Of a stretch of DNA of 64,000 nt, positions 55,200 to 59,104 are shown one piece after another (the first letter of the stretch is position 1; the number at the start of each line of letters is the position of its first letter). The translations under genes and the position numbers were made by a program. The DNA lies in contig OZ287076.1 of NCBI GenBank assembly GCA_965645245.1, forward strand, positions 1 to 64,000, in the 5' to 3' direction. The notes under the pieces are model-generated. The model was not told the DNA's origin. It made no database searches and worked only from the letters and a program-made list of their open reading frames with translations. Source of the stretch: Massalongia carnosa. Its lineage: Eukaryota.

Positions 55200-58100
55200 A
55201 TGACATCAACACAGGTCGCACGGCCGACCACGTAAGTACACCTAACCCTCGTTTGCGACAAGGCTCTGCTGACTTTGCGCCTTTGCTGAAGAAATGACCT
55301 TTGGGCAAGTGCGAAGGCTGAGATGAGTAAGGAAGACCAAAAAAACATATACTTTGACCGCTCCAACAAGCTTGACATCTTGTCTGATCTACACCAAGTT
55401 ACCAAGAAGGCAAAGCAAGAGTGTATCAAGAAAAAATGGCGATACACGAGAACGAGTGGAGAGACGGTCATATTCGTGGACCTATTTGGCAAGATCTTCA
55501 AGTGGATTAATCTTTTTAAGCAAGTCGGGGACATGGCTGTTCAGTATGATCCGGTTCATGCTGCGCTTCCTTGGGCTGGTATTCGATTTCTCCTGCAGGT
55601 TTGTGATGTTGAAAATAGCGAAAGATATTACTAAAACCTCTATAGATTGCCGTCAATGATTCCCATAAATATGCTTTCGTGGTCGAAAGTGCGGCTTCGA
55701 TTGGGGAAATCATTTGTCGATATGCTGTATTCGAGGACGTCTACCTGCAGTACCCATCCGCTGCTGCTGATGAACTTCGGAGAGCTCTAGTTATGTTTTA
55801 TGCAGCGATTATGATCTATTTATCGAAGGTTAAGAGCTACTTTGAACAGAACTCTGCAGGTTAGTTTTGCATTTCAATAACAGAATATATATTGATGACA
55901 TTTACAGTGCGTACATTGAAGAGCGGACTTCTGGCAAAGTCAGACATTGAGCCATTCTTTGGTGCCATTGCTACCGCTCAAAAGACCGTTGATCGTTGTT
56001 CCTGTGTGGTTGGAATGCAAGGTAAGCTTGCTCGATAGGACTTCTATTTTCTGAATTCTTTACTAATGAACCTAGAACAAATAAATCAACGCATGGACTT
56101 GAAAAGACTTCTCAAGCGTATCGATGGCCCAATAAAACGAATGAGTGCGGATTTAGTAAACATTAAAGATGATTTTGAGTGTAAGTTGTTAAAATCAACA
56201 TCAGAGCCTCAACTCATGAGCCCTAGCATCAAAGAGAAATAAGATTCTAGACTGGATGTCCCCCGTACCATATAGACAACATCATAATCAGACTAATGAA
56301 GAAGTGTTACAGGGTACTGGACAATGGCTGCTTTCGAATCCAGTTTTCAAAACGTGGAAGGAAGAAAGTGTATCTTCTATCTTGTGGCTTCAAGGGATTC
56401 CAGGTTCTGGGAAGAGCAAGCTGGTGTGAGTACTGTACAGCTATCTCGGAAAGATAAATGCTTACGGTTAACATAGATCTATTTTGATTGAAGATGCCAA
56501 AAAAGCCTTCGATAATGGCCAAAGCCCAGCTCCAGTCTTTTTCTACTGTTCACGAAACACCGCTGAACCTGCGCGTTCAAACCCTGATGCAATCGTAGCG
56601 ACTATCGCACGGCAATTGTCTAGCCGTCAACCGGGACACTCTCTACTCCCTCCAACGGTGGCAGCCTACAAGAAACGAGAAATGGAGGGATCCGCCTCGG
56701 AATCATTAGGTATAAATGAGAGTCGTCTACTAATCCTCCAGCTTGCCGAGCATTATCAATTAACAACCATTGTGATCGATGCGCTTGACGAGTGCGACCC
56801 AGAGAAACGGACAGTTCTTTTGGAAACCTTAGAATTAATTCTTCAAGAGTCCTCAAGCTTGGTGAAGATCTTTGTGTCGAGTCGAGATGATCAAGATATT
56901 GTTTTGTCTTTGCGAGACTACCCTAATCTTGAGCTCTCATCTGAAATGAACAAGGATGATATCTCGTCGTTTATTACCGCTGAGACCGACAACCTTATCA
57001 AGAGAAAGAGGCTACTAGCTTTAAGCACCAACAAGGAGAAGTTGAAGATCGAGATTATGGAACAGGTCACAAAAAACGCTGATGGGATGTCAGTACTGTC
57101 CAGCAATGCGAGCCATATTTATGCCCCACTAATGTGATCACCAGGTTCCGGTGGGCTAGCCTCCAACTGCAAAGCTTATGCAGCGCTCGGACTGATGAAG
57201 CTATTCGGGAAAGGCTCGGGCAACTGCCACCAAATCTGGAAGACCTTTATCTTGAGCTATACGAGAAGTTGACCAAAACCTCAGCAAACGCCGATCGCGA
57301 AGTGACTATCAACGCTTTCAGCTGGCTCCTCTGCGCCCAGAGAAAGCTGACATCTAGAGAATTTCTCGCGGCAATGTCAACGACCCCACGGCGACAGTTC
57401 CGCGAGCTGACGAAAGAGCATATTTTGGAGATGTGCTCTAACATGGTTGTTTTCGATTCAACACTCGATACGTTTCGATTTGCCCATCTGTCGGTGAGAG
57501 AATTTTTGGAGAAGCGGCCAGAATATACTAGAGAAGCGACAAACGCCCTGGCTGCTGAGACATGTCTCTTAGACGTATTAAGTGCTGCCGACAACCCAAC
57601 AACAAAAAGACTTCTTTCTAAATACGGACAAGATTCATTAAACTCAACTCTTTCACATGACCTTAGACACTACTCGAATGTCTACTGGGCTCCGCATTGT
57701 CAGCTAGCTGCTAAACAAAGGACTGCCGATGTGCTTAACGACCTCCTTTATCATTTTCTCTCCAACGAATCGGACTCAGGATCCGCTATTGCTGTATGGG
57801 CTAGCCTGATTAAGGAAAGGCTTTACGATTACTCGATTGAAATGGAACTAAGGGATAAATTTAAAGACACTAGCGCTAAAGAGGGCAGAGCTCTCTTTGT
57901 TGCCTCCTGTTTTGATTTGCAGGAAATTGCTAGAATCCGGGCAAATTTCGGAGACAACATAGTGAACACTCAGAGTCGGACATCTTTGGAAATCGCTGTT
58001 AAATATGGTAGTTGTGATGTAGTTTCGATCTTGCTGAAAAATAAGCTTACGATAATATCAGAAGAGGTGGTGAAGGCAGCGGCGGGAAATTCCGGGAATG

Positions 58101-59104
58101 GGAAAGAGGTGATGACGCTCTTGCTTGAGCAGCGCGGGGCAGATGTGATGATTACGGAAGAGGTGGTGAAGGCAGCGGCGAGAAATGAGGAAAATGGGAA
58201 AGAGGTGATGACGCTCTTGCTTGAGCAGCGCGGGGCAGATGTGATGATTACGGAAGAGGTGGTGAAGGCAGCGGCGGGAAATTCCGGGAATGGGAAAGAG
58301 GTGATGACGCTCTTGCTTGAGCAGCGCGGGGCAGATGTGATGATTACGGAGGAGGTGGTGAAGGCAGCGGCGGGAAATTCCAGGAATGGGAAAGAGGTGA
58401 TGACGCTCTTGCTTGAGCAGCGCGGGGCAGATGTGATGATTACGGAAGAGGTGGTGAAGGCAGCGGCGGGAAATTCCTGGAATGGGAAAGAGGTGATGAC
58501 GCTCTTGCTTGAGCAGCGCGGGGCAGATGTGATGATTACGGAAGAGGTGGTGAAGGCAGCGGCGGGGAATGAGGAAAATGGGAAAGAGGTGATGACGCTC
58601 TTGCTTGAGCAGCGCGGGGCAGATGTGATGATTACGGAAGAGGTGGTGAAGGTAGCTGCGACATGCGGGCAAGATGGGGTCTTAAAAATAATCGAAGAAA
58701 AGTTTAAGATCTCCCCTTCCAAAGAAGAATGGTCGATCGCCCAGTTTTATAACGCAGCAAAATTTGGAAAGGCGTATACAATCCAGAAACTACTAGCAGA
58801 AGGGGTCAAACCTGATCTAAAAAATTCTCGGCATGTGTCTCCACTTTGGATTTCCGCAGCATATGGCCACCTTAGAGTAGTTCAACTACTACTTCGTACT
58901 AAAATTGTCGACGTCAATACGAAGAGTATATCTGGGCGGCCTCCTATCTTTTGGGCAGCAGCAGAAGGTAACAAAAATATCGTGAAACTATTGCTGACAG
59001 CAGGGGCAGATCGTACTCTCGAAGATATAGATGGAAAAACTCCGCTGTCGGTGGCCAAGAAAAATGGACATGACAAGATTGCAAAAATGTTGTCTGGTGG
59101 GTAA
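55200..59104 (+). CDS. Fungal NLR-like protein: helical N-terminal domain, NACHT NTPase, six 32-aa repeats, ankyrin repeats (8 predicted exons, apparently intact)
   Basis: ATG at 55200. Predicted GT-AG introns ~55232-55291, 55599-55645, 55860-55907, 56022-56076, 56181-56226, 56426-56477, 57089-57144. Walker A GIPGSGKS, Walker B TTIVIDALDEC, KIFVSSR, GMFRWA, FAHLSVREFL, ankyrin motifs SPLWISAAYGH and TPLSVAKKNGH. Confidence 0.9.
58058..58651 (+). repeat. Six tandem 96-bp (32-aa) coding repeats plus a partial unit, right NLR copy
   Basis: Same unit as the left copy; xx = SG, EE, SG, SR, SW, EE. Confidence 0.97.

Follow-up and report, generated by a model that had tools for sequence, protein, structure and literature searches.

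The NLR gene and its repeat array

The 64,000-nucleotide stretch of Massalongia carnosa DNA analyzed here (contig OZ287076.1 of assembly GCA_965645245.1, positions 1 to 64,000; hereafter the window) harbors two copies of a gene coding for a NACHT-containing NOD-like receptor (NLR). Each copy contains a tandem array of six 96-bp units encoding 32-residue repeats, and the units of the intact copy, which are almost identical in DNA, differ chiefly at two adjacent codons, 12 and 13. The intact gene (the right copy) is located on the plus strand at 55200..59104, as are all of its domains given below. Its exon junctions were set by the gaps between the tblastn blocks of two full-length homologs, P0052 and P0061, followed by splice motifs. 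The model comprises eight exons (55200-55231, 55292-55598, 55646-55859, 55908-56021, 56076-56180, 56227-56425, 56477-57088, and 57145-59104) with the ATG at 55200 and the stop at 59104, and the resulting coding sequence of 3543 nt encodes 1180 amino acids in a spliced frame devoid of internal stops. All seven introns are of the GT-AG type, range from 46 to 60 nt, and carry a branch-site motif.

The amino-terminal domain encoded by exons 1–5 (55200..56180) is probably of the NACHT_N or NWD-associated type, as judged from a weak match of PF17100 to one exon (E 3.8e-4, 20.9 bits, under the cut-off of 30) and from 50–71% identity of this region to P0052 and P0061, both of which are annotated with PF17100. 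Exons 6 and 7 (56227..57088) encode the NACHT NTPase, matched by PF24883 (NPHP3_N) with E-values of 4.5e-12 and 8.6e-17; in the spliced protein, residue 314 marks a Walker A-type motif and residue 424 an acidic motif of the Walker B type. The region at 57145..58057 encodes a winged helix (PF22939, GPIID_WHD; E 1.4e-6, 29.0 bits, cut-off 27), a helical linker, and an ankyrin-like amino-terminal cap preceding the array, the latter recognized from an Ank_5 match at residues 291–320 of the open reading frame (ORF) and from helices in the structural model. This is followed by the six full units at 58058..58633 (protein residues 833–1024) and by a seventh, degenerate unit at 58634..58729, which forms a carboxy-terminal transition and of which the first ∼18 nt alone are identical to the other units. 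The units belong to the Pfam family DUF7104 (PF23397), which matched the right-copy ORF in seven stretches with an E-value of 2.7e-106. The remaining sequence up to and including the stop codon (58730..59104) encodes three canonical ankyrin repeats (Ank, E 6e-35; Ank_2 at ORF residues 557–647), and no WD40 family was found among the Pfam matches of the right-copy protein. The right copy is thus predicted to be a functional ascomycete NLR, with a probable domain order that runs from an NWD-type amino-terminus through the NACHT NTPase and the winged helix to six DUF7104 repeats followed by three ankyrin repeats. A first-pass annotation of the window, made from its sequence without database searches, had described the array as part of an NLR sensor, and its position as the carboxy-terminal repeat domain of a NACHT NLR (PF24883, PF22939, frame of 1180 residues) bears this out.

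Tandem Repeats Finder detected two 96-bp arrays in the window, at 58061-58660 (6.2 copies, 95% matches) and 19180-19779 (6.2 copies, 94% matches), which, when read in frame, contain six full units each at 58058-58633 (+) and 19782-19207 (−), respectively. The right array had initially been delimited as 58058..58651; its start was retained, while the six full units end at 58633 and position 58651 falls 18 nt into the degenerate seventh unit. The residues at unit positions 12–13 read SG-EE-SG-SR-SW-EE in the right array and SG, SR, FR, SR, SR, and EG in the left array (19207..19782, minus strand), the same strings as reported in the first-pass annotation, and the two differ at four of six slots.

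Protein-level differences among the right units were found at codons 10, 12, and 13, besides the boundary codon 1 (S/T in unit 1). Codon 10 showed a G/R change and one synonymous change, codon 2 a single synonymous change, and codons 11 and 14 were invariant; the variation previously ascribed to codons 10–14, chiefly 12–13, is therefore confined within that interval to codons 10, 12, and 13. The changes are radical and often involve several nucleotides at once, as earlier noted, examples being TCC/GAG (codon 12) and GGG/GAA (codon 13). The backbone of the right array (codons 2–9 and 15–32) showed no non-synonymous differences per site (pN = 0) and few synonymous differences per site (pS = 0.0185). 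The near-identity claimed for the units of both arrays holds for this array and less so for the left one, which carries 10 singleton changes outside codons 12–13, six of them non-synonymous.

Codons 12–13 account for only 6 of 93 sites, and yet they take at least 7 of the minimum of 10 substitution events in the right array (binomial P 4.7e-7, or 1.4e-5 when the 30 possible adjacent codon pairs are allowed for). The pairwise nucleotide difference at these two codons was 29 times that predicted from the backbone synonymous rate. The concentration of change at codons 12–13 is far beyond chance. Repeats of high internal conservation (HIC) have been defined by an identity between units of 85% or more across 100 residues or more (Dyrka et al., 2014; PMC4986451). 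The right copy has a mean pairwise unit identity of 0.94 over 192 residues and the left one of 0.88, which places both arrays in the HIC category.

Homologous loci, relatives, and predicted fold

A scan of metagenome contigs revealed eight loci (L001–L008) encoding relatives of the window protein. Units for a codon-level test were taken from L001 (five units), L002 (six), L005 (four), and L006 (three) together with the right array of the window, giving 24 units from five arrays. Gapped, 30-residue, frameshifted, and partial units were left out, as were L003 (which duplicates L001), the left copy in the window (a pseudogene, described below), and L004, L007, and L008 (fewer than three usable units each). 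When the five independent arrays were pooled, the backbone showed a ratio of non-synonymous to synonymous divergence (dN/dS) of 0.26 with a dS of 0.240. The ratio of dN to the backbone dS reached 3.41 for codon 12 and 2.66 for codon 13 and did not exceed 0.79 for any of the remaining 30 codons, and pN at codons 12–13 exceeded the backbone pS in all five arrays. These values are suggestive of positive selection at codons 12–13, short of formal proof.

Gain and loss of whole units was observed among the homologs. L001 encodes a homolog of residues 10–1178 of the window protein with 60–66% identity. Its flanks were found to be 99.88% identical to those of L003 over 3410 nt and 99.38% identical over 3407 nt, and its array contains six units compared to four in L003, a difference of 192 bp. 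L001 and L003 are one and the same locus on two contigs, two alleles of a homolog that differ by exactly two units; a unit-number difference between alleles, as anticipated in the first-pass annotation, is thus seen in a homolog of the window gene. Six close members, i.e., the two window ORFs and the proteins P0001, P0002, P0004, and P0045, share a common unit backbone and a 308-residue flank that is 93–98% identical. Their arrays contain 6 and 6 (window ORFs), 12 (P0001), 16 (P0002), 10 (P0004), and 7 (P0045) units, and the order of the di-residues differs among them; from their sequences, these six may be either alleles or paralogs. Eight sequencing runs in four studies were identified as sources of this sequence, with no RNA run among those listed. 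The unique 5′ flank of the array (56500-58057) was represented in contigs of four sequencing runs by many short contigs, none spanning it, with 40 places of alternative letters listed and 33 more. Such short, variant-rich flank contigs fit a multi-copy family and are uninformative on the arrays themselves. At L006 (positions 2058-3500), the DUF7104 array shows many frame changes and stops between recognizable units, an appearance suggestive of a further copy in decay.

With the repeat region as the query, 703 of the 7998 proteins scored were matched at E ≤ 0.001. The relatives analyzed here are the 120 proteins listed of these 703 matches, both window ORFs included, all of which carry PF23397; candidate gene calls were restricted to 370–1178 residues, and many of the relatives are partial. 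The named relatives among those listed are all from Pezizomycotina (such as Botrytis, Aspergillus, Trichoderma, Fusarium, Colletotrichum, Penicillium, and Pseudogymnoascus). By hand count, the amino-terminal partner of the repeats was NACHT and/or a winged helix in 67 of the 120 proteins, HET in 22, only tetratricopeptide repeats (TPR) in 11, and other domains in 10, with no partner in the remaining 10. The nearest clusters in the ESM Atlas were those of DUF7104 from Ascomycota, followed by ankyrin families.

Within-array variability could be scored in 106 of the 118 listed relatives from outside the window, each with at least four ungapped units. The most variable position was 12 in 44 proteins and 13 in 36 (80 of 106), and in 43 proteins the two positions held both top ranks. 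Mean entropy was 1.83 at position 12 and 1.87 at position 13 and did not exceed 1.13 at any other position. The neighboring residue, Asn11, was nearly invariant (833 of 889 units). Among the 889 pooled units, which have a mean net charge of −1.04, the di-residues at positions 12–13 were of 213 kinds, with an effective number of 130 and the five most frequent making up 15%. Aromatic residues constituted 21% at position 12 and 15% at position 13, as compared with 1.3% elsewhere. As judged from these sequences, positions 12–13 look like a candidate hypervariable binding site rather than a small code. A second type of unit, 30 residues long, with a loop shorter by two residues and no variable pair, was found interspersed among the 32-residue units in P0001, P0002 (at slots 4, 9, and 14), P0004, P0045, P0003, and the locus L002:2512-3050. 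It makes up 61 of 1208 unit hits and is absent from both window arrays; this unit could determine how the solenoid twists, or it could be a spacer.

Profile searches with the right array alone returned PF23397 over the whole 31-position profile (E 1.3e-100, 329.3 bits, cut-off 26.1) and Pfam Ank in six stretches covering positions 9–31 of the 33 in the profile (E 9.7e-19, 66.9 bits, cut-off 21.1). Designed consensus ankyrins matched the array sequence at E-values of 2.9e-7 to 6e-3. No TAL-effector family was present among the 19 Pfam families matching the array at E ≤ 10, a search in which the HMMER filters may conceal very weak matches.

Tertiary structure prediction with AlphaFold2 of the residues encoded by 57848-59101, using an alignment of 18 sequences, gave a model with a mean predicted local distance difference test (pLDDT) score of 91.4. 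Each modeled unit consists of helix A of 8 residues (2–9), a loop of 5 (10–14), helix B of 15 (15–29), and a linker of 4 residues, and the units stack into a solenoid that contains no strand and no hairpin between units, with positions 12–13 in the middle of the loop. The canonical ankyrin unit of 33 residues, with a β-hairpin (finger) before helix 1, was not matched, as the array unit has 32 residues and lacks the hairpin. The best matches to this model in the PDB were all ankyrin proteins, although the global superposition was poor (Foldseek). The ankyrin repeats of espin-1 (5et0_A) aligned with model residues 9–289, which include the array, with Z 18.9 and a root mean square deviation (rmsd) of 3.2 Å over 256 aligned residues (VIA-align), and designed as well as natural ankyrin proteins superposed on model residues ∼266–418 with an rmsd of 1.1–1.9 Å. 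The Ank match (E 9.7e-19) and the superposition on espin-1 are in agreement with the earlier proposal of an ankyrin-like helical repeat. Chains of transcription activator-like effectors (TALEs) were absent among the structure matches listed for this model and for a second model of the array alone. Based on the model, DUF7104 is read by us as an ankyrin derivative in which the hairpin may have disappeared and the interhelical turn may have become larger. As the units are predicted to stack as an ankyrin-type solenoid, residues 12–13 of successive units, owing to their loop position and the regular stacking, should be exposed and should form one row along the stack.

The left copy, the inverted duplication, and its surroundings

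Comparison of the window with itself by blastn showed that both arrays are held in a ∼7-kb inverted segmental duplication, in which 16232-22924 pairs with the right arm at 54911..61601 in inverse order (61601-54911); an additional piece at 23138-23496 pairs with 54912-54539. The arms are 96.4% identical over 6705 aligned columns and differ by 225 substitutions and 6 indels. Repeat-induced point mutation as the origin of the differences between the copies was ruled out, with 121 of the substitutions being transitions and 104 transversions. A telomere repeat, (ACCCTA) × 27.8, occupies positions 1–167 of the window, and hence both NLR copies are subtelomeric, the left at ∼16–23 kb and the right at ∼55–61 kb from the chromosome end.

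The left, paralogous copy (18736..22635, minus strand) was found to be a pseudogene upon comparison with the right copy. It retains every splice site, and its exon 3 is longer by 3 bp. A deletion of 8 bp shifts the frame in exon 7, TGG is changed to TAG at codon 1057 (numbering of the right-copy model), and two residues of its Walker A motif are changed. Along the entire CDS, 87 non-synonymous and 32 synonymous codon differences separate the copies; the resulting omega of ∼0.86 is about the neutral ratio. In the 308-residue flank, 9 of the 12 residue differences between the copies are derived in the left copy, 1 is derived in the right, and 2 are ambiguous. The near-neutral omega can therefore be attributed to decay of the left copy, and the contrast between left and right arrays is in itself no evidence of selection even though the difference at four of six slots is real. 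The left copy may still be a donor of units. Codon 10 is GGG in both sixth units (left 19207-19302, right 58538-58633) and in no other unit, and so the two are regarded as positional counterparts. Six of their 96 nt are nevertheless different, and the E-G-S loop contained in the left one is also present in units of the paralog P0004; this loop may be a trace of gene conversion between paralogs.

The surroundings of the duplication are rich in transposons, including copia, gypsy, Mutator-like (MULE), and long interspersed nuclear element (LINE)-like elements. Nested long terminal repeat (LTR) elements occupy 33258-45256 of the window. Direct repeats at 34547-34994 and 40678-41125 (98.9% identical) bracket a gypsy-type pol at 35038-40130 (−), and outer repeats at 33258-33596 and 44918-45256 (98.8% identical) enclose both the gypsy element and a copia-type polyprotein at 41072-44941 (−), an arrangement that looks like the insertion of a gypsy element into a copia element. 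A LINE-like element at 48814-54457 (−) comprises ORF1 with a zinc knuckle as well as endonuclease, reverse transcriptase, and RNase H. Its end is separated by ∼80 bp from the extended duplication boundary (54539), and the element may have contributed to the duplication. Two ORFs for MULE/FAR1-type transposases (26552-27817 and 29691-30826, both on the plus strand) lie between the NLR copies. A fungal-specific protein kinase (PF17667, E 4.9e-51) is encoded at 12854-14245 (+) in two frames, with an intron or a frameshift between the parts.

Possible role of the array in recognition

It was observed that the backbone of the units is near-identical in DNA, that two loop residues change fast and radically, and that whole units are gained and lost. 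Most likely, the array is an HIC sensor, in which the loop di-residues would form a predicted row of ligand contacts, diversified by selected point changes together with unit shuffling. According to this proposal, unequal recombination or gene conversion between units would homogenize the backbone and reshuffle the units, and selection for new binding specificities would diversify residues 12–13. The row of loop residues would bind a ligand, ligand binding would release oligomerization of the NACHT domain, and oligomerization would lead to a downstream response such as regulated cell death, by analogy with HET-E/HET-D and other fungal NLRs. The position-wise hypervariability and the unit gain and loss in homologs agree with the HET-D/HET-E-like regime suggested in the first-pass annotation.

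Several findings weigh against an HIC sensor of this kind. When codons 12–13 are scaled by their own synonymous sites instead of the backbone, dN/dS is 0.99, a value that is unstable with only ∼1.4 synonymous sites at these codons; the excess of non-synonymous change expected at these codons in a larger sample was consequently seen against the backbone dS, at codons 12 and 13 alone, and not on their own scale. The estimates are pairwise Nei-Gojobori counts on few units, made with no tree and no recombination-aware model, and the ratio of non-synonymous to synonymous differences between the copies in the window is about the neutral one. For 26 of the 106 relatives, variability peaks at a position other than 12 or 13, and as these proteins are mutually related, the binomial P of 3.5e-73 obtained for them is not a true probability. 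With regard to structure, a single-sequence model of the array alone was of moderate confidence (pLDDT 69.2) and gave no PDB match at E ≤ 0.001 (Foldseek); its best Z in VIA-align was 7.7, to generic solenoids, with the Bcl-3 ankyrin at Z 5.9. The predicted ankyrin-stack geometry thus depends on one model.

The dN/dS of 0.99, the omega of ∼0.86 between the window copies, and the location of residues 12–13 in a loop would all be expected if these residues were simply the least constrained of the unit, drifting neutrally while whole units are copied by concerted evolution, with no role in recognition. Relaxed constraint alone cannot surpass the neutral rate, and hence the excess of dN at codons 12–13 over the backbone synonymous divergence, seen in five of five arrays and amounting to 29-fold in the intact window array, counts against such drift. 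The near invariance of the adjacent loop residue Asn11 and the at least 10-fold enrichment of aromatic residues at positions 12–13 do so as well, and the near-neutral ratio between the copies is accounted for by the decay of the left copy, to which 9 of the 12 flank changes belong. Neutral drift of the loop is therefore considered an unlikely explanation.

The proposed HIC sensor can be compared with the characterized repeats of fungal NLRs. The WD, ANK, and TPR repeats of these receptors often show an internal identity of 85% or more, their number varies between isolates, and few positions, located on the binding face, are positively selected (Dyrka et al., 2014; PMC4986451). The HIC principle has since been extended to WD40, ANK, TPR, and HEAT repeats (PMC13449251). 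The HIC ANK NLRs of Podospora anserina (Pa_3_8560 and Pa_2_8180) resemble the window gene in being NACHT NLRs with near-identical tandem repeats and few hypervariable positions (PMC4986451; PMC13449251). They too show repeat-number polymorphism, which is observed here in the homolog of the window gene (L001/L003), and the mechanism proposed for them is unequal recombination combined with diversifying selection. Highly conserved ANK units of fungi are typically 33–34 residues long, and in the Podospora ANK gene analyzed, five positions in the inner helix and the hairpin/loop are under selection (PMC4986451). Going by the published description, the Podospora repeats are canonical ankyrins of 33–34 residues, whereas the window units have 32 residues, lack the hairpin, vary at two adjacent loop residues, and belong to a separate Pfam family, DUF7104.

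HET-E, HET-D, and HET-R of the NWD family share with the window gene the NLR logic, the near-identical repeat backbone, and, through the weak PF17100 match, a probable NWD-associated type of amino-terminal domain. About four positions per unit are hypervariable in these proteins, and their units are shuffled within and between paralogs. Their repeats are 42-residue blades of a WD40 β-propeller, unlike the helical solenoid predicted for the window protein. Among designed proteins, DARPins (designed ankyrin repeat proteins) and consensus ankyrins (4o60, 4gpm, 6mol) are comparable to the window array in having a fixed framework with few diversified positions; 4o60_A matched the array sequence at E 2.9e-7, and structural similarity was also seen with this group, while the global superposition of DARPin chains on the model was poor (rmsd 11–29 Å). 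In the HMMER register, unit positions 12–13 correspond to the turn and to the last part of ankyrin helix 1, where two of the randomized positions of DARPins are located. DARPins also diversify hairpin positions, and DUF7104 has no hairpin.

In TALEs, the variable di-residues occupy positions 12–13 of a two-helix repeat of ∼34 residues, and a code of this kind had been suggested for the window array. A modular code, in which each di-residue recognizes a single element of a linear peptide or nucleic-acid ligand as in TALE, pentatricopeptide repeat (PPR), or designed armadillo proteins, would be in keeping with a two-helix unit, a hypervariable adjacent pair in the connecting loop, and the shuffling of units as cassettes, and the best Foldseek rows of the array-only model were indeed weak PPR and designed armadillo matches (E 0.013–0.07). 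These rows are non-significant and come from the model with a pLDDT of 69, whereas the high-confidence model superposes on an ankyrin stack. The absence of TAL-effector families at E ≤ 10 contrasts with Ank at E 9.7e-19, no small alphabet is apparent (213 di-residues in 889 units, the top five at 15%), and the mean net charge of −1.04 per unit argues against nucleic-acid binding. The likeness to TALE repeats is hence only formal, consisting of near-identical two-helix repeats of ∼33 residues with an adjacent variable pair in the loop; the window units differ in being acidic, in the 213 di-residue types of the family, in their ankyrin origin, and in belonging to a eukaryotic cytoplasmic NLR. 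A TALE-like code is not supported, and a modular code in general appears highly improbable.

That the number and order of units were mis-assembled and the di-residue strings are unreliable is barely credible: HIC arrays are indeed hard to assemble from short reads (PMC13449251) and the gene flank lies in many short contigs in the sequencing runs, but the copies were assembled separately with their own diagnostic variants in one window reaching the telomere, the same design recurs in 106 other proteins and eight metagenomic loci, and the unit types differ at codons 12–13 whatever their order.

A bolder proposal, offered as a speculation with rather little chance of being right, is that DUF7104 arrays constitute a cassette recognition scaffold, in which each hairpin-less unit would contribute one di-residue to a continuous ridge and the order of the units would read an extended linear ligand (a peptide or other polymer) at about one element per unit. 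If so, fungi would re-program specificity by shuffling units, and the array would be a protein-level analogue of the TALE/PPR code in an immune receptor.

With respect to the HIC sensor favored here, the principle is already known, and the repeat itself is already catalogued in Pfam as DUF7104 (PF23397), the family of the window units, with its function given as unknown. No paper mentioning DUF7104 or the unit motif was found in a search lying outside most subscription journals, which brought up only general papers on HIC repeats, and as far as searched, DUF7104 as an HIC sensor, its fold assignment, and its two-residue footprint are undescribed. The 2014 survey left about half of the carboxy-terminal domains of fungal NLRs unannotated (Dyrka et al., 2014; PMC4986451). 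DUF7104, which is widespread in Pezizomycotina behind NACHT, HET, TPR, kinase, and other amino-termini, now gains a predicted fold (ankyrin-derived and hairpin-less) and an evolutionary behavior (HIC, with units being gained and lost). Of the many fungal NLRs, to our knowledge, almost none has a known ligand. The candidate binding footprint of the DUF7104 array is very small, with two residues per unit; it would render swap experiments and ligand screens unusually tractable and hints at a simple natural scaffold for binder design.

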